Origin: Phenylobacterium sp.
Lineage (GTDB): Bacteria > Pseudomonadota > Alphaproteobacteria > Caulobacterales > Caulobacteraceae
Assembly (NCBI RefSeq): GCF_020402585.1
Contig: NZ_JADBZH010000125.1
DNA: 64,000 nucleotides
Direction: 5' to 3' (one strand)
Positions 5,992-27,256 of the stretch are shown here, in pieces. The notes below the pieces were generated by a model. The model was not told where the DNA came from. It saw only the letters and a program-made list of their open reading frames with translations, and ran no database searches. The position numbers were made by a program, and so were the translations under genes. Each line of letters opens with the position of its first letter. Positions within the stretch are counted from its first letter, which is position 1.

Positions 5992-6411
5992 ATGAGCCGG
6001 GCCCTCGCCCTGGGCATCGTGATCACCGATGGGGTCTTCTCCCTCTACTGGGCGCTCTCGGCCGCCTACCTCTCGGGGCTCGTGGACGTGCCCGACGCCT
6101 ACCTCTTCTCCGGGTATCATGATCGACACCTGGTCGCCTGGAACTGGTCGTTCTTCCCGCTGGACCTGGCGGCGACAGCATTCGGCGCCTGGGCCATCCT
6201 GGCCTCCCGGCGACAGGGCGAGTGGCGAACCCTCGCCGCCGTTTCGCTGGCGCTGTGGTCGACGGCGGGCGGGATGGCCGTGGCGTACTGGACCCTGATG
6301 GGCGAGTTCGACCCCTCCTGGTTCCTTCCGAACCTGGTTGTCTTCGTCTGGCCGCTCTTCTTCCTGCCAGGACTGGTCCGCCTGCGAACCGCGCAACCTC
6401 CTCCGCCATGA
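5992..6411 (+). CDS. Small integral membrane protein (about 4 TM), divergent from the TetR gene
   Basis: ORF 5902..6411. The start at ATG 5992 (MSRALALGIVITDG...) leaves a 109-bp divergent intergenic region. The last ~9 codons are encoded antisense to the WYL-gene remnant at 6386..6494. Confidence 0.6.
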   Translation: MSRALALGIVITDGVFSLYWALSAAYLSGLVDVPDAYLFSGYHDRHLVAWNWSFFPLDLAATAFGAWAILASRRQGEWRTLAAVSLALWSTAGGMAVAYWTLMGEFDPSWFLPNLVVFVWPLFFLPGLVRLRTAQPPPP

Positions 6412-6494
6412 GCGTCTTCAGCCGGTCGGGACCCAGGATCTCGATCTCGCCGCGCCAGGTGAAGAGGCGCCTGCACAGCTCCAGCAGGCCCCCT
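6386..6494 (-). pseudogene. Remnant copy of the 3' region of the WYL regulator gene
   Basis: 109 bp align with 7316..7424 with 9 mismatches. The minus-strand translation GGLLELCRRLFTWRGEIEILGPDRLKTLMAEEVAR parallels GGLLELCWHLFTWRGEIEILAPDRLKTLMAEEVSR of the intact gene. There is no start codon and the last 13 codons are missing. Confidence 0.8.
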
Positions 6495-6835
6495 CCGACG
6501 CGCTGCGCGCGCCACCTCCCCCTGGGGGGAGGAATTACGGACCCAATTGCTCCCCCAAGGGGGAGCTGTCAGCGAAGCTGACTGAGGGGGTCAACGGCCC
6601 CTCAGCTGACCCCCTCCGGCCCGGGGCCTTGCCCCGGTCCACCTCCCCCTGGGGGGAGGAATGAGGGAGCCAATGGCTCCCCCAAGGGGGAGCTGTCAGC
6701 GAAGCTGACTTAGGGGGTCAACGGCCCCTCAGCAGACTCCCGCCGTCGCGCTGCGCGCGCCACCTCCCCCTGGGGGGAGGAATGAGAGGCGCCCGTTGCT
6801 CCCCCCGCAGGAGTTGTCGACGAAGACCGTTACGG
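6491..6835. repeat. Tandem array (~2.5 units, period ~121-127 bp) of composite hairpin repeats (REP/RIME-like)
   Basis: Repeated palindromes CCTCCCCCTGGGGGGAGG, GCTCCCCCAAGGGGGAGC and GTCAGC..GAGGGGGTCAACGGCCCCTCAGCTGAC. CCACCTCC anchors occur at 6512, 6639 and 6760. Confidence 0.85.
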
Positions 6836-7276: not shown

Positions 7277-8278
7277 TCAGGGTTGGTCGTTCGTGGCATC
7301 CGGTTCCGAAAAACGGAACCGCGAAACCTCCTCCGCCATCAGTGTCTTCAGCCGGTCCGGGGCCAGGATCTCGATCTCGCCGCGCCAGGTGAAGAGGTGC
7401 CAGCAGAGTTCCAGCAGGCCCCCTGTCCGAAGGCGCAGGAGGAGGCCGCCGTCGGGCTGGGGCTCGAAGGTCTGGCTGGGATGGAAGAGGAAGGAGCGGG
7501 CGAGGTCGGCCGAGCCGGGCCGGACGCGCAGAACGATGTCCTCCGCCGGTTCCTGGAAGACGCCGAAGGACTGGCGGGCGAAGGCGTCCATGTCAAAGCT
7601 TTCGGGGACCTGGGCGGGGCTCTCCAGCACTTCCACCCCGGCCATCCGGTCCAGTCGCCACAGCACGGGATCCGGGGCCCCGATCCGCCGGGCGACGAGG
7701 TAGTAGACCGAGCCGAAGAGAAGACCACAGGGGTCCACGGTCCGCTGGACGGTCTCGGCGCCGCCCCGCGCCGAATAGTCGAAGCGGACCTGCCTCATGG
7801 CCAGCAGGGCGGTCCTCAGCTGTCTCAGCACCTCGGGGTCGCAGGCCGGCCGGGGGCCGGGACGCAGGGCGATGCGCTCTGTCAGGGCCAGAGCCTCCAC
7901 GTCTGCGGCGTAGCGCACCCTCAGCCCCGGCCGGATGCGGGACTCCACCTTGCCCGCCAGGCTGACCAGGTTCTCCGCGCGCCCCTGCAGGCCGTCCCGG
8001 CGCGCCGCCTCCGCGGCGAGGGCGAGGTCGGCCAGTTCCTCCACGGTGGGGGTCTCGAAGAAGGGGTCCAGGCCGCCCGGAATCCGGAAGCGCTTGGCCC
8101 GGCCCTCGCGGATCTCCTCCATCTGCGGGAAGAGGTCGCGCACCGCGTCCCGCATCCGCTCCGCCGTGCGCCGGTCGACGCCGAACTCCGCCGCGATTTC
8201 CTCCAGGGCGAGGCCCTCCGCAGACGCCGCCAGGCGACGGGCGAGGTGGAGGAGGGCGGTGGCCTTATCGAGGCGCAT
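7277..8278 (-). CDS. WYL domain-containing transcriptional regulator (HTH-WYL-WCX architecture)
   Basis: N-terminal HTH (LEEIAAEFGVDRRTAERMRDAV), a WYL-type core (SVYYLVARRIG...LWRLDRM) and a C-terminal extension. Confidence 0.8.
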   Translation of the reverse strand: MRLDKATALLHLARRLAASAEGLALEEIAAEFGVDRRTAERMRDAVRDLFPQMEEIREGRAKRFRIPGGLDPFFETPTVEELADLALAAEAARRDGLQGRAENLVSLAGKVESRIRPGLRVRYAADVEALALTERIALRPGPRPACDPEVLRQLRTALLAMRQVRFDYSARGGAETVQRTVDPCGLLFGSVYYLVARRIGAPDPVLWRLDRMAGVEVLESPAQVPESFDMDAFARQSFGVFQEPAEDIVLRVRPGSADLARSFLFHPSQTFEPQPDGGLLLRLRTGGLLELCWHLFTWRGEIEILAPDRLKTLMAEEVSRFRFSEPDATNDQP

Positions 8279-19127: not shown

Positions 19128-19335
19128 TGACCCCCTCATCTGGCTCCGTGATTCCTCCCCCAAGGGGGAGGTGGCGCGCGCAGCGCGTCGGAGGGGGTCA
19201 GCTGAGGGGCCGTTGACCCCCTCAGTCAGCTTCGCTGACAGCTCCCCCTTGGGGGAGCAATGGCTCTGTCATTCCTCCCCCCAGGGGGAGGTGGACCGCG
19301 CAGCGGGCCGGAGGGGGTCAGCTGAGCCGCCGCTT
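19128..19335. repeat. Hairpin-repeat array (same family as 6491..6835, opposite orientation, ~1.5 units)
   Basis: attcctcccccaagggggaggtggcgcgcgcagcgcgtcggagggggtcagctgaggggccgttgaccccctcagtcagc... is the reverse complement of the unit at 6491..6835. It lies between the convergent argJ and helicase genes. Confidence 0.85.
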
Positions 19336-21519: not shown

Positions 21520-22320
21520 TTGGCGGGGCTGGTCGAAGCCCTGGCTGAGCTCGTCCTGGCGCGCGCCGACCGGCCGGGCTGGGTGCTGGGCCTCTCGGGC
21601 GCGCAGGGCTCGGGCAAGTCGACCCTGGCGGCGGGCCTGGCCTCGGCGCTGGCGCAGGCGGGCCGGTCCTGCGCGGTCCTTTCCCTCGACGACGTCTATC
21701 TCGGCCCGGAGGCCAGGGCGGACCTGGCGCGGCGGGTCCATCCCCTGTTCGCCGTGCGCGGCCCGCCGGGGACCCACGATGCGGGCCTTGCCCTGAATGT
21801 CCTGGAGGCCCTGGGCCGCCCCGGCCCGGTGCGCCTGCCGCGCTTCGACAAGGGCAGGGACGCCCCCGTGCCGGAGGACGAGCAGCCGGTCTTCGAGGGG
21901 CCCGCCGACGTCGCGATCCTCGAGGGCTGGTGCCTGGGCGCCCGGCCCGACCCCTCAGCGGCGGCCTCGGCCCCCATCAACGCTCTGGAACGCGAGCACG
22001 ACCCCTACGGGACCTGGCGCGGGGCGGTGGAGGCGGCGCTGGCGGGGCGGTATGCGGACCTCTTCAAGGCCCCGGACCTGACGGTCTTCCTGCGCGCGCC
22101 GGACTTTCCGACCGTCCGCCGCTGGCGGGGTGAGCAGGAGGCGGAGCTGGCCCGCGCCATCGCGGCGGGACGGCCCGGCCGGGCCATGGGCGAGGCCGAA
22201 CTGGACGACTTCCTGGCTCGCTACGAGCGGATCACCCGCCGGCTGATCGCCGACCCGCCCGGCGACACCTTGGTCGACCTCGCCCCCGATCGGACGCCGG
22301 GCCCGCTTCAACGTCTCTGA
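21520..22320 (+). CDS. P-loop kinase (COG4240 / D-glycerate 3-kinase-like)
   Basis: Walker A GLSGAQGSGKSTLA; TTG start at 21520. Confidence 0.65.
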   Translation: MAGLVEALAELVLARADRPGWVLGLSGAQGSGKSTLAAGLASALAQAGRSCAVLSLDDVYLGPEARADLARRVHPLFAVRGPPGTHDAGLALNVLEALGRPGPVRLPRFDKGRDAPVPEDEQPVFEGPADVAILEGWCLGARPDPSAAASAPINALEREHDPYGTWRGAVEAALAGRYADLFKAPDLTVFLRAPDFPTVRRWRGEQEAELARAIAAGRPGRAMGEAELDDFLARYERITRRLIADPPGDTLVDLAPDRTPGPLQRL

Positions 22321-23249
22321 GGCCGGGTCCCGGGGACGCTTTGCTCTTCCCCACCCAGGGCGTCGGCCAGCCGCATCTTCGCGGACCCCGGCCTGAGGGG
22401 CTTCTGCTGGATCTCCGAGGGCGACCAGCCGGTCAGGGTGAGGATCTCGAAGGTCGCCGCGATCCGCCCGTCCGGGCCGGCGAAGTCGCGGGCGTAGATC
22501 TCGAAGGCCCGGGCCAGGACCTTCCGGGTCAGGGGGCGGGGGTGCCGCTCGGCCAGGACCGAGGTCTCGCCCATCCGCCGCAGGTCCGCCATCAGCTTCA
22601 GGGGATGGTCGTAGCGCACGGTCACCCGGTCGACGTCGGCCACGGGCAGGGCGAAGCCGGCCCTCTGCAGGAGGCCCGCGGCGTCCGAGGGGTCGGCGAA
22701 GGGCGAGACCCGCGGCCCGGCCCCGCCGGTCAGCTCCAGCTCAGCGGCGGTCAGAGACTGGCGCAGCTCGGTCAGGGTCGCCCCGCCGAACAGGGCGCCG
22801 ATGAAGAGGCCGTCGGGCTTGAGCGCCAGCCGGGCCTGCACGAGGGCGCCCACCACGTCATTGGCCCAGTGCAGGGACAGGCTGGAGACGATGAGGTCCA
22901 GGCTGGCCGGGGCGAAGGGCAGGCGCTCCTCGTCAGCGACGATGCGCATCCCCGCCCGGCCCGCCAGCATGGCGCCGGACAGGTCCGCCTCGACCAGCAG
23001 GCCCACCCGGGGGGCGGCGTCGCTGGCCGCCAGGGCTTCGGCGAAGGCGCCGTTGCGGGCCCCGAGGTCGACGGCGCGGGGGAAGTCGCGCATGATGGCT
23101 TCGAGGCGCATCACGATGTCGCCTGCGGCGCGGCGCTTCAGGAAGTCGGCCCCGGCGTATCCCGGGGCGGCCCGGTCCAGCCGCCGGCGCAGGAGGTCGC
23201 GGTCGAAAATTCGCGGGGGCGAGGCGGAGGGCGGCATGGGCCGCGACAA
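22308..23249 (-). CDS. Class I SAM-dependent methyltransferase (BioC/NDUFAF5-like)
   Basis: Methyltransferase fold (VDLGARNG..., LDLIVSSLSLHWANDV). TTG start at 23249 with an upstream AAGG; alternative ATG at 23237. Confidence 0.8.
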   Translation of the reverse strand: MSRPMPPSASPPRIFDRDLLRRRLDRAAPGYAGADFLKRRAAGDIVMRLEAIMRDFPRAVDLGARNGAFAEALAASDAAPRVGLLVEADLSGAMLAGRAGMRIVADEERLPFAPASLDLIVSSLSLHWANDVVGALVQARLALKPDGLFIGALFGGATLTELRQSLTAAELELTGGAGPRVSPFADPSDAAGLLQRAGFALPVADVDRVTVRYDHPLKLMADLRRMGETSVLAERHPRPLTRKVLARAFEIYARDFAGPDGRIAATFEILTLTGWSPSEIQQKPLRPGSAKMRLADALGGEEQSVPGTRPQRR

Positions 23250-23284
23250 TGAACCTTTCGGCCGGGCCTGGGAACCCGCCGGGC
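23203..23284. repeat. 82-bp direct repeat, copy 1 (methyltransferase 5' end plus comF 5' end)
   Basis: 81/82 identical to 24681..24762. Confidence 0.95.
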
Positions 23285-23331
23285 CCAGCTCATTGGGTGC
23301 AGGGCGATGCTGCCCTCCCTGCGACCCGTCG

Positions 23332-23667
23332 CTACGATCTGCCGATCACCTTGGAGTCGGAACAAATCATCAGGGCCCCGCCAAGGTAACTCTTCCTGTT
23401 GGGGCAGGTTTCCGTCTGCTCCTCGATCTCGGGCGCCTTGAAGACCGAAACAGGCTGCTTCCGGGCGGGACGCACAGGTCGACATTCGCCGACAGAATCC
23501 CAGGCGCGGTCGCCCCATAGGATCGACAGTGTGATCCCCTGGCAGGGCCGACCGCCGCTGGCGGTCGACGCGGCCAGGGTTTCAGAAGAAGCCCCCGAAC
23601 TGATCGTGACACCGATGAGGAAGGCGGCCGACGCCACCATCACGAGGGGGATTGCAGAGTTGGACAT
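23332..23667 (-). CDS. Small secreted or membrane-anchored protein with four Cys (111 aa)
   Basis: N-terminal hydrophobic signal-like segment IPLVMVASAAFLIGVTISSGASS. Cys residues at CQG, ECR, ETC and ICS. No family was recognised. Confidence 0.5.
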   Translation of the reverse strand: MSNSAIPLVMVASAAFLIGVTISSGASSETLAASTASGGRPCQGITLSILWGDRAWDSVGECRPVRPARKQPVSVFKAPEIEEQTETCPNRKSYLGGALMICSDSKVIGRS

Positions 23668-23756
23668 GGGGTGATCTTTCCAGCTGTGGAAGCAGCTTCC
23701 TGTGCACGGGAGCAGGGGTAAGTCCGGCGTGATCGGATGAACGACGGATTTCGAGG

Positions 23757-24545
23757 ATGAACCACATCGACCGGGTCGCCCTGGCCACCCTCGCGGTTTG
23801 GGTCGGCCTTTGCGGCGTTCTCACATTGACGATCCTCGAGACGGAGAGCCCACGCCGGGCCCTCCTGCTCGCTTCAGTGATCGTAGGTCTTGCGGCCGCG
23901 ACTGCGCACTTGGCTATCCTTGTCCGAAGGCTGCCCGGACCTCGTTGGCGGCGTTGGCTGCTGATCTGCCTCACCGTTGGCGCCTGCGCCTTGGTCAGCC
24001 ACGCCGTCTTTGTTCATCTCGGGATGCGGCAGTCGCTGATGCAGGACCTCGTGAACCTCGGGGTGGTCACGGGCATCGCCCTTGTCGTCCAAGAGGGAAT
24101 TGCGGGCCATCGCGCCCGGACCCAGCTTCAGCACCAGTCGAAGCTCCTCGAGGAAATGGAGGCGCGGGTCCGGGGCCTGAGCGCGCGGCAAGGCCGCATG
24201 GTCGTCTTGAAGATCGGCCACTCCGAACGCCGCATAGACCCCAGTGAAGTCAGTCACGCTGAGGCGGATGGCAATTTCGCGCGACTTTGGCTCGGCCCGG
24301 AGTATCTCTTTGTCTCGGAGTCGCTGAAGGACATCGTCGAGCGGCTGTCGGAGCATAGTTTCGTGCGAATCCACAAATCCTGCGCGGTGAATGCGGCTTG
24401 GGTTCAGGAGCGCCGGGGCGATGACATCGTCTTGCGGACGGGGCAACGCCTCAGGATCGGACGCGCGTATCTGAACTCTGTGCGAGACCTCCTGTTCGAC
24501 GATGGCCGTCGTCCCGGAAACCCTGAGGATCCCCCCCGCCTCTGA
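23757..24545 (+). CDS. Membrane-anchored LytTR-domain DNA-binding protein (about 4 TM + LytTR)
   Basis: Four N-terminal hydrophobic helices. The C-terminal LytTR pattern is ...VSHAEADGNFARLWL...FVRIHKSCAVNAAWV... Confidence 0.75.
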   Translation: MNHIDRVALATLAVWVGLCGVLTLTILETESPRRALLLASVIVGLAAATAHLAILVRRLPGPRWRRWLLICLTVGACALVSHAVFVHLGMRQSLMQDLVNLGVVTGIALVVQEGIAGHRARTQLQHQSKLLEEMEARVRGLSARQGRMVVLKIGHSERRIDPSEVSHAEADGNFARLWLGPEYLFVSESLKDIVERLSEHSFVRIHKSCAVNAAWVQERRGDDIVLRTGQRLRIGRAYLNSVRDLLFDDGRRPGNPEDPPRL

Positions 24546-24680
24546 TCCAGCGCCTGGGTGGACGAAGTCCCTGACCTTCGCTCGGCCTGGGTTCTTGGTC
24601 GACCTGGCTCCCGGGAACCTGGATGTCGACGGCGCGCGGGAAACCGCCCAAAGTGCTCCGAAGTGCATCTGGTTTTGCAG

Positions 24681-24762
24681 TCGAAAACTCGCGGGGGCGA
24701 GGCGGAGGGCGGCATGGGCCGCGACAATGAACCTTTCGGCCGGGCCTGGGAACCCGCCGGGC
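24681..24762. repeat. 82-bp direct repeat, copy 2
   Basis: 81/82 identical to 23203..23284. It contains the functional comF start (ATG 24714). Confidence 0.95.
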
Positions 24763-25499
24763 TCCTCGTACGGGCGGGCCGGGCGGCGCTGGACGTCATC
24801 TATCCCCACCGGTCCCTGGATGAGGACCGACCGGTCCAGACCCCCGGGCTCTCCGCAGAGGCCTGGAGCCGCATCGCCTTCCTGGACGATCCGGTCTGCG
24901 ACGGCTGCGGGACGCCCTTCGAGTTCAGCCTGGGACCCGGCGCCCGCTGCGCGGCCTGCCTGGCGAAGCCCCGGGCCTTCGACCGCGCCCGGGCGGCCTG
25001 CCTCTACGACGAGGCCTCCCGGGGCCTGGTCCTCCAGCTCAAGTACGCCGACCGGACCGACCTCTCGGCCCTGTTCACCGCCTGGATCTCGCGCTCGGCC
25101 CGGGAGCTGCTGGCGGAGGCCGACGCCGTCGCCCCCGTGCCCCTGCATCCCTCGCGCCTGTTCCGCCGGCGTTACAACCAGGCCGCAGAGATCGCCCGGC
25201 CCCTGGCCCGGCTCTGGTCGCGGGACTACCTGGCCGACGCCCTGGTCCGCCGGCGGGACACGGGCGCGCAGGCGGGGCGCTCGGGAACCGGCCGGCGTCG
25301 GAACGTGGCCGCGGCCTTCCGGGTCCCTGACAGCCGCCGTCGCCAGGTGGAGGGGCGGCGGATCCTCCTCATCGACGACGTCATGACCACCGGCGCGACC
25401 CTAGAGGCCTGCGCCCGGGCGCTGAAGGCCGCCGGCGCCGCAGGGGTGGACGCCGCCGTCATCGCCAGGGTTAAAGACCCGGCAAGCCTCACCATATAG
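24714..25499 (+). CDS. comF: ComF family protein (phosphoribosyltransferase domain)
   Basis: N-terminal Cys cluster CDGCG...C..C and a C-terminal PRTase motif ILLIDDVMTTGATL. ATG at 24714. Confidence 0.85.
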   Translation: MGRDNEPFGRAWEPAGLLVRAGRAALDVIYPHRSLDEDRPVQTPGLSAEAWSRIAFLDDPVCDGCGTPFEFSLGPGARCAACLAKPRAFDRARAACLYDEASRGLVLQLKYADRTDLSALFTAWISRSARELLAEADAVAPVPLHPSRLFRRRYNQAAEIARPLARLWSRDYLADALVRRRDTGAQAGRSGTGRRRNVAAAFRVPDSRRRQVEGRRILLIDDVMTTGATLEACARALKAAGAAGVDAAVIARVKDPASLTI

Positions 25500-27045: not shown

Positions 27046-27256
27046 TCGTGAGGAGCCGGGCGGGGCCACCGACGACAAGGCGATGGCCGCCGCCTTCGCC
27101 GACAACATGATCCGCTACGAAGTCGTCAAGGTCTACGCGCGGAACTGATCGCGGCTCCGGGGCCTCTTGTGTGGCGGAAGCGCAACACTACATCCTCGGG
27201 GCGGCGGTTGCGCTTGATCAAGGTGACCGTCCTCCATCCGCCTTACGAGGGGACAC

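Follow-up and report, generated by a model that had tools for sequence, protein, structure and literature searches.

Direct repeats of host sequence on either side of inserted DNA are known from several kinds of genetic element. Integrases can duplicate 100-200 bp of the end of a target gene, as with e14 in icd, and the resulting attL and attR repeats (e14 and phage 21 in icd, islands at the 3' ends of tRNA genes) keep the host gene whole, with divergence concentrated at the outer edge of the pseudo-copy. Transposons and insertion sequences (IS) are immediately flanked by direct target repeats of 2-15 bp. In flexible genomic islands, such as those involved in capsule or O-antigen switching, which are exchanged through homologous recombination in their flanks, the same core-gene site is used in several lineages with presence/absence polymorphism, no mobility genes are carried, deeply diverged alleles occur at one locus, and the histories of insert and flanks disagree. 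Here, we describe a locus in a 64,000-nt stretch of Phenylobacterium sp. DNA (contig NZ_JADBZH010000125.1; the whole stretch is referred to as the window), in which a two-gene insert lies between an S-adenosylmethionine (SAM)-dependent methyltransferase gene (MT) and comF, two divergent genes with overlapping start codons. The locus can be described as an accessory islet that lies between unusually long duplicated copies of the two overlapping gene starts. The explanation that we favour, with a probability of roughly 0.55, is one old illegitimate capture that would have duplicated about 221 bp of the target, followed by homologous recombination.

The locus has all of the features listed above for flexible genomic islands. 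However, its insert is tiny, and the overlapping 5' ends of both neighbours are present on each side of it as a long duplication, which offers an internal route to gene conversion and precise loss that is absent from ordinary islets. With the attL/attR duplications it shares direct repeats of host-gene sequence in the same size range, which keep the gene whole, and divergence at the outer edge of the pseudo-copy, but no integrase was found in any allele, the target consists of two overlapping 5' ends rather than a 3' end, and the cargo is a truncated chromosomal module that is not visibly a phage or island remnant. Direct target repeats immediately flanking the inserted DNA are also a feature of transposons and IS, which were nevertheless rejected as an origin, as the insert has neither a transposase nor terminal inverted repeats and its duplication (86 nt seen, about 221 nt originally) is far longer than theirs. 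The capture of DNA by Ku/LigD end-joining in Sinorhizobium meliloti is similar in that a foreign fragment without terminal features was taken up by an alphaproteobacterium in the absence of a recombinase or homology, but the reported events took place where I-SceI had made a clean cut, and their joints show small deletions and no long target duplication (PMC6379672).

The direct repeat lies at 23199-23284 and 24677-24762, and its two copies differ only at 24679 and 24688, so that 84 of 86 positions match (74 nt exact). When the window was searched by BLAST, the second copy was recovered with E = 2e-38 and the next-best match had E = 0.05. The original prediction, which was made from the sequence alone, gave a repeat of 82 nt at 23203-23284 and 24681-24762 with 81 of 82 positions identical; this was confirmed, and the repeat could be extended to 86 nt. 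As also described there, the left copy holds 13 codons of MT and 16 codons of comF, and the duplication leaves both genes whole. MT (22308-23237, minus strand, 309 aa) is an intact open reading frame (ORF) with a Pfam Methyltransf_11 domain and a weak BioC-like match below cut-off, and its start codon is CAT at 23235-23237. The comF-family phosphoribosyltransferase gene (24714-25499, plus strand, 261 aa) is also intact, with the Pfam domains Pribosyltran and DZR_2 and with NCBIfam ComF/GntX matches below cut-off. The tetranucleotide CATG at 23235-23238 is common to both starts, being read as CAT for MT on the minus strand and as ATG (23236-23238) for comF, and in the right copy the comF start falls at 24714.

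In each copy, one half of the 86-nt block has kept its function. The left copy provides the N-terminal codons of MT and the sequence upstream of MT. From the right copy come the GGAGG ribosome-binding site of comF, inside the repeat and 6 nt ahead of its ATG, and the N-terminal 16 codons of this gene. The right copy also contains a 13-codon fragment of MT, which reads RVFDC in place of RIFDR. The right-copy variants at 24679, 24686 and 24688 of the window are also present in the right copy of a second occupied lineage, L083.

The duplicated unit was originally longer than this block. Alignments with the repeats of a third occupied lineage, L092, and with a remnant at 24622-24674 of the window indicate that it comprised about 221 bp (window 23067-23287), so the unit of 82 bp given in the original prediction did not hold. 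The left copy of this junction segment (23067-23287) consists of the native 5' end of MT (about 57 codons), the CATG and a comF fragment of 16-17 codons. The right copy is represented, outside the 86-nt block, by a decayed distal remnant of the MT 5' fragment at 24622-24676, which aligns to 23064-23117. Within it, 24622-24650 matches 23064-23092 at 24 of 29 positions, a score that was reached by none of 1000 dinucleotide shuffles and by none of 974 other pieces of the window, 24655-24674 aligns to 23098-23117 at about 70% in a gapped alignment, and the 79 nt corresponding to 23118-23196 are deleted. The match at 24622 begins within about 4 nt of the start of the right copy in L092. As the remnant is only about 75-80% identical to its counterpart while the block is 98% identical, the near-identity of the block is maintained rather than young.

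Across about 70 Caulobacterales and other Alphaproteobacteria, no more than a few tens of bases separate the inferred starts of MT and comF, and this near-zero spacing shows the head-to-head arrangement to be the ancestral state. A scan of genome contigs for ComF puts the window in Phenylobacterium. In five related contigs (L041, L002, L003, L004 and L105) the site is empty: the segment occurs once, there is no insert, and MT and comF abut each other. The flanks of L041, the closest relative, are 95-98% identical to those of the window, and those of L002, L003 and L004 are 86-90% identical. A foreign insertion between the two genes, as claimed in the original prediction, is therefore borne out by the uninterrupted junction in relatives that it had proposed to look for. 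No occupied or empty allele with the exact MT or ComF protein of the window is on record.

Besides the window, two other lineages were found to be occupied, so that there is presence/absence polymorphism at a single site. In the first, represented by L082-L091 from several JGI, ENA and Logan samples, the flanks are 94-95% identical to those of the window and the same insert is 98.6% identical, while the repeats of L083 are only 90% alike. In the second, L092, the flanks are 86-90% identical to the window and the insert is homologous yet very different, with 63% identity for the LytTR protein and 39% for the small protein that it encodes. The repeats of L092 (3880-4099 and 5402-5621) are 220 nt long and 99.1% identical, and they extend into MT by a further 131 nt. 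In the window, L083 and L092 the left copy has its right end in the same alignment column, and the right copy starts at the same TCGACGGCG, which is intact in L092 and a decayed remnant in the window. Between the window and L092, the left junction thus agrees to the nucleotide and the right junction within about 4 nt. The two shared boundaries together with homologous cargo show that the inserts of the window, L083 and L092 had one origin, or else, judging from these alignments, that a deterministic mechanism produced them. The original prediction had named an ancient, fixed structure with diverged repeats in relatives as the arrangement that would speak against it; the structure is indeed old and its repeats have diverged, but it is polymorphic rather than fixed.

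A chimeric or mis-joined contig at the short repeat could in principle have produced such an arrangement. In one read set, L001 (Logan SRR30952588), the insert is found as a separate unitig of 1464 nt that ends inside the repeats, as would be expected of a loop in a de Bruijn graph with k=31, and the length of this unitig corresponds exactly to window 23255-24718, which is the insert plus 30 nt of exact repeat per side. The same unitig shows that the window's own allele, including its right-copy variants, is present in the reads of SRR30952588. Independent assemblies from different samples and assemblers (L083, L084, L086 and L092), on the other hand, cover the whole structure from MT through both repeats and the insert to comF within single contigs, the right copy is distinguished by variants of its own and by its decayed extension, and both genes of the insert are conserved and under purifying selection, with a ratio of non-synonymous to synonymous divergence (dN/dS) of about 0.17-0.37. 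We therefore regard an assembly artefact as effectively excluded.

The similarity of the two copies in the window had been taken as a sign of a recent event, on the grounds that there was a single mismatch. A recent transposition-like insertion, by a novel mechanism with an 82-bp target duplication, would fit the 74 exact and 84 of 86 matching positions, the empty site in the closest relative and the lack of a recognisable mobility gene. However, the same structure occurs in L083 with repeats of 90% identity and in L092 with 220-bp repeats and a LytTR protein of only 63% identity, the right copy of the window carries a decayed and partly deleted remnant of a longer duplication, and the left 200 bp of the insert are as diverged from L083 as the flanks are. 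Furthermore, near-identity can be accounted for by gene conversion, which was demonstrated in L092: six substitutions private to L092 are found in both of its 220-nt copies, which differ at two positions only. Concerted evolution through gene conversion is the pattern seen here, unless the repeat was regenerated within the lineage. In the left copy, five private changes have accumulated in the comF pseudo-fragment of L083, compared with none or one in that of the window; given the decay seen in L083, the copies of the window must have been homogenised. The near-identity of the 86-nt block is thus better explained by gene conversion plus constraint than by recency, and a recent transposition-like event can also be considered effectively excluded.

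The history of the insert also differs from that of its flanks. Between the window and L083, synonymous divergence (dS) is 0.12-0.30 for the flanking genes, 0.015 for the LytTR gene and 0.06 for the small-protein gene. Between the window and L092 the order is reversed, with dS of 0.28-0.55 for the flanking genes, 1.9 for the LytTR gene and 1.7 for the small-protein gene. These estimates show that the history of the insert is uncoupled from the flanks in both directions. The high values with L092 may reflect faster change of low-GC3 genes (GC3, GC content at third codon positions) in a high-GC genome, saturation, or deep alleles. Along the insert, divergence between the window and L083 is 4.4% in the left 200 bp, which is flank-like, about 0.8% from about 23491 to 24762, and dense again from 24763. 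The low-divergence stretch resembles a recombination tract that begins within the insert and terminates in the right repeat. Informative sites among the window, L041 and L083 are mosaic throughout, which indicates that homologous exchange among these lineages is common. In the flank tree, ((window, L041), L083 group), (L092, (L003, L004)) and L002, occupied and empty sites are interleaved. Judging from the flank-like divergence at its left end, the insert would already have been in place when the window, L041 and L083 last shared an ancestor, and from this we infer a clean loss of the insert in L041.

The insert itself (23288-24621) is foreign to its surroundings, as judged by its GC content and its absence from the five relatives. 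GC is 60-66% between the repeat copies and 70-77% in the flanks, and GC3 is 0.77 compared with 0.89-0.98 in the flanks. The insert carries two genes that point outward from a divergent intergenic region of 89 nt (23668-23756), which, from the gene arrangement, probably contains the insert's own bidirectional promoter region. A scan for promoters and terminators detected nothing that matched the sigma-70 consensus and only a single weak terminator-like site, located within the LytTR gene, and is uninformative at a genome GC of about 72%. The small-protein gene (23332-23667, minus strand, co-oriented with MT) encodes 111 aa with a hydrophobic N-terminus and four conserved cysteines. It had no match in Pfam, NCBIfam, PHROGs or PADLOC, but it is conserved in the other occupied lineages (97% identity in L083, 39% in L092) with the invariant motifs RPCQG, WGD.AWD and CPN..SYLGGAL. 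The second gene (23757-24545, plus strand, co-oriented with comF) encodes a membrane-anchored LytTR DNA-binding protein of 262 aa with a hydrophobic N-terminal half and a LytTR domain (PF04397, Pfam, E = 1.6e-10) at residues 159-246. A homopolymeric C tract at 24527-24533 is one residue longer in L082-L091 (8 C) than in the window (7 C), which shifts the frame of the last residues of this protein (262 or 272 aa), and this difference could be a sequencing error or a real length-variable tract.

The cargo was compared with LytTR regulatory systems, in which a LytTR DNA-binding domain is likewise coupled to a membrane-embedded part (PMC6193735). Here the two are fused in one protein and no separate membrane inhibitor is encoded, the host is an alphaproteobacterium, and the protein is paired with a small exported protein and, in native modules, with a CPBP/Abi-type intramembrane protease whose gene has been lost from the Phenylobacterium copy; such systems are the nearest concept described so far for the cargo. 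Full-length relatives of the LytTR protein numbered only a handful in a library of 50%-identity representatives. Profile searches and context look-ups showed that homologues of 38-51% identity sit in a three-gene module, in which the genes of a CPBP (Rce1-like) intramembrane protease and of the small protein lie on one strand and the LytTR gene diverges from them. Native modules (L094, L096, L097, L098 and L102) have native GC, lack flanking repeats and occupy ordinary chromosomal places, either between the Hpt and chorismate mutase genes or between recR and rmuC. The copies lie at L094:4788-6810, L097:2026-4029, L098:2904-4943, L102:2893-4920 and L096:4803-6780 (in the last the small-protein gene was not called), usually between an amino-acid permease-Hpt pair and the chorismate mutase gene. 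The four cysteines of the module protein of about 110 aa are conserved among the three Phenylobacterium copies aligned, and the three-gene module of other Alphaproteobacteria may be a signalling or bacteriocin-like system.

The left end of the insert falls 11-44 nt beyond the stop codon of the small-protein gene, where the protease gene would start. By comparison with the native copies, the insert is best described as a truncated fragment of an alphaproteobacterial module that is missing its CPBP gene. Cargo of this kind, cut from an ordinary chromosomal module, speaks against an element dedicated to mobility.

The absence of mobility features, as stated in the original prediction, was upheld. 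No transposase or integrase was found in the insert by searches of Pfam, NCBIfam, PADLOC and PHROGs, the LytTR and small-protein genes being its only two ORFs, and no inverted repeat pairs its two termini. RNA genes and tRNA targets were also checked, with no tRNA or Rfam match at the insert. No tyrosine or serine recombinase gene lies in or beside the insert in the window or in L082-L092, where the neighbours are the same housekeeping genes. Other known classes of element were considered and rejected. An integron cassette and a dif/Xer site appear unlikely, as no terminal imperfect palindrome was seen in the insert and the repeat does not resemble a dif site. A phage origin was rejected as no relative was found in viral contigs and the only PHROG match, a weak one to a family of unknown function, was through the LytTR domain, and a defence system was rejected as there was no PADLOC match. 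The duplication is also not a property of the site or of the cargo family, as other insertions at the junction (L008, 599 bp; L068, 1430 bp; L063, 3139 bp; and others) lack flanking repeats, as do the native modules. Within the window, no other copies of the insert or its ends, which the original prediction had suggested searching for, were found, and a scan of metagenome contigs for more insert alleles gave only a contig that was already in the comparison set.

Although no recombinase was identified, the direct repeats of target sequence at both ends (86 nt in the window, 220 nt in L092) resemble attL and attR, and a Campbell-type element was considered. The insert with one junction copy of about 221 bp would circularise through the repeats and re-enter an empty junction by a single crossover, either by host RecA or by a site-specific integrase that acts in trans or has since been lost; in the latter case the repeats would be attL and attR. 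Insert alleles that have diverged deeply share both of their repeat boundaries, as if the element carried the segment with it, and the uncoupling of insert and flank histories in both directions would be expected of a mobile unit. The end of the low-divergence tract between the window and L083 inside the right repeat, with divergence returning from 24763, the right-copy variants at 24679, 24686 and 24688 that travel with the insert in both lineages, and the empty site in L041 are also consistent with such an element. However, a recombinase gene is missing from all three alleles, both within the insert and beside it, and the cargo is a piece of an ordinary module. The flank-like left 200 bp of the insert (4.4% compared with about 0.8% in the remainder) point to a crossover inside a resident insert rather than to the arrival of a whole circle. 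Both copies in L092 carry the six private substitutions of their host, whereas a donor arm would give hybrids unless the donor came from the same lineage, and three occupied lineages in very large collections represent little spread for a mobile element. A Campbell-type origin is therefore a possible but doubtful explanation of the locus, although it is the strongest alternative to the one that we favour.

A further, more speculative possibility is a recombinase-free cassette that hitch-hikes on host functions, in which the insert and its junction segment of about 221 bp would loop out and re-enter empty junctions through host homologous recombination, with the duplicated host segment serving as a portable homology arm that is refreshed in each cycle. 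Identical boundaries, host-like repeats around ancient cargo and a patchy distribution would all be explained in this way. We consider such a cassette unlikely.

According to the explanation that we favour, a recombinase-independent capture would have brought a fragment of about 1.3 kb from the chromosome of another alphaproteobacterium into an ancestral Phenylobacterium, where it became joined between MT and comF. With joints staggered by about 221 bp, the junction segment would have been left on both sides of the insert. This could have occurred through a fragment bridging two sister copies, through a template switch during replication, or through fill-in and end-joining of a staggered break. 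Selection would then have kept a rare product that spares both genes, as the overlap of the start codons means that only an insertion that duplicates the junction leaves both of them whole. Afterwards, gene conversion would have kept the repeat copies alike, exchange through the conserved flanks and the repeats would have moved insert alleles between lineages, and recombination between the repeats or replacement by an empty allele would have removed the insert precisely, probably with its loss from some lineages. In the window lineage, the outer part of the right copy has decayed and lost 79 nt, with the 86-nt block remaining.

There are several points that weigh against this explanation. We know of no bacterial process that gives a target duplication of about 221 bp around a captured fragment, so that the joining step is a conjecture. 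A precedent for the capture itself exists in its favour: in an alphaproteobacterium, end-joining was shown to bring non-homologous DNA into a broken chromosome, without long duplications (PMC6379672). The closest native homologues of the cargo are 45-51% identical. The dS of the insert between the window and L092 (1.7-1.9) is 4-5 times that of the flanks (0.28-0.55), and this excess means that an origin in place requires either much faster evolution of the insert, which may have come from amelioration of its low GC3, relaxed constraint or a saturated estimate, or the exchange of deep alleles across lineages. Identical boundaries in deeply diverged alleles would be equally expected of a Campbell-type unit carrying its own junction, and L041 could simply never have been occupied, in which case no loss would have taken place there.

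It was originally suggested that the promoters of both flanking genes must lie in the inserted DNA. This is questionable, as comF was left by the original event with about 170 nt of its native upstream sequence (still present in L092) and MT with about 47-50 nt, and the ribosome-binding site of comF is inside the repeat. Read-through from the insert could also reach MT and comF, since the orientation of its two genes is outward and transcripts from the divergent region could run into both neighbours.

Other variable features were observed near the locus and elsewhere in the window. An M20 peptidase gene lies between the DUF1178 gene and clpB in L082, L092, L003, L104 and L105, but not in the window or L041; a remnant of 62 nt is found at 27057-27118 in the corresponding spacer of the window (27046-27256). 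A CBAH-family gene is also located between DUF1178 and clpB in L104 and L105. The presence and absence of the M20 peptidase gene show that the spacer near the insert locus also varies among lineages. One end of the metagenome contig L104 (L104:1-233) lies 12 nt outside the left boundary of the 221-nt segment, which could be chance or a branch of the assembly graph caused by coexisting occupied and empty alleles. Three places in the window (6386-6783, 7316-7424 and 19141-19332, with the orientation reversed at the third) contain tandem pairs of GC-rich palindromic intergenic repeats of about 110-120 nt, which have the core CCTCCCCC..GGGGGAGG and resemble repetitive extragenic palindromic (REP) elements or miniature inverted-repeat transposable elements (MITE). 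A direct repeat of 168 nt (71-238 and 2015-2182) has 84% identity, its copies being 1944 nt apart.

To summarise, the locus provides a natural example of DNA that has been wedged between two overlapping start codons without damage to either gene, through a long duplication of the start region, and the duplicated copies then provide the material for gene conversion, for precise loss and for exchange between lineages. For genome scans the locus is also a warning, as near-identical flanking repeats cannot be used to date an insertion when concerted evolution resets them. If the Campbell-type reading were true, the locus would represent a way for gene cassettes to move without a recombinase of their own. 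At present, it is best regarded as a curiosity of genome evolution that is well documented, and not as a new system, with no sign of a new kind of mobile element.

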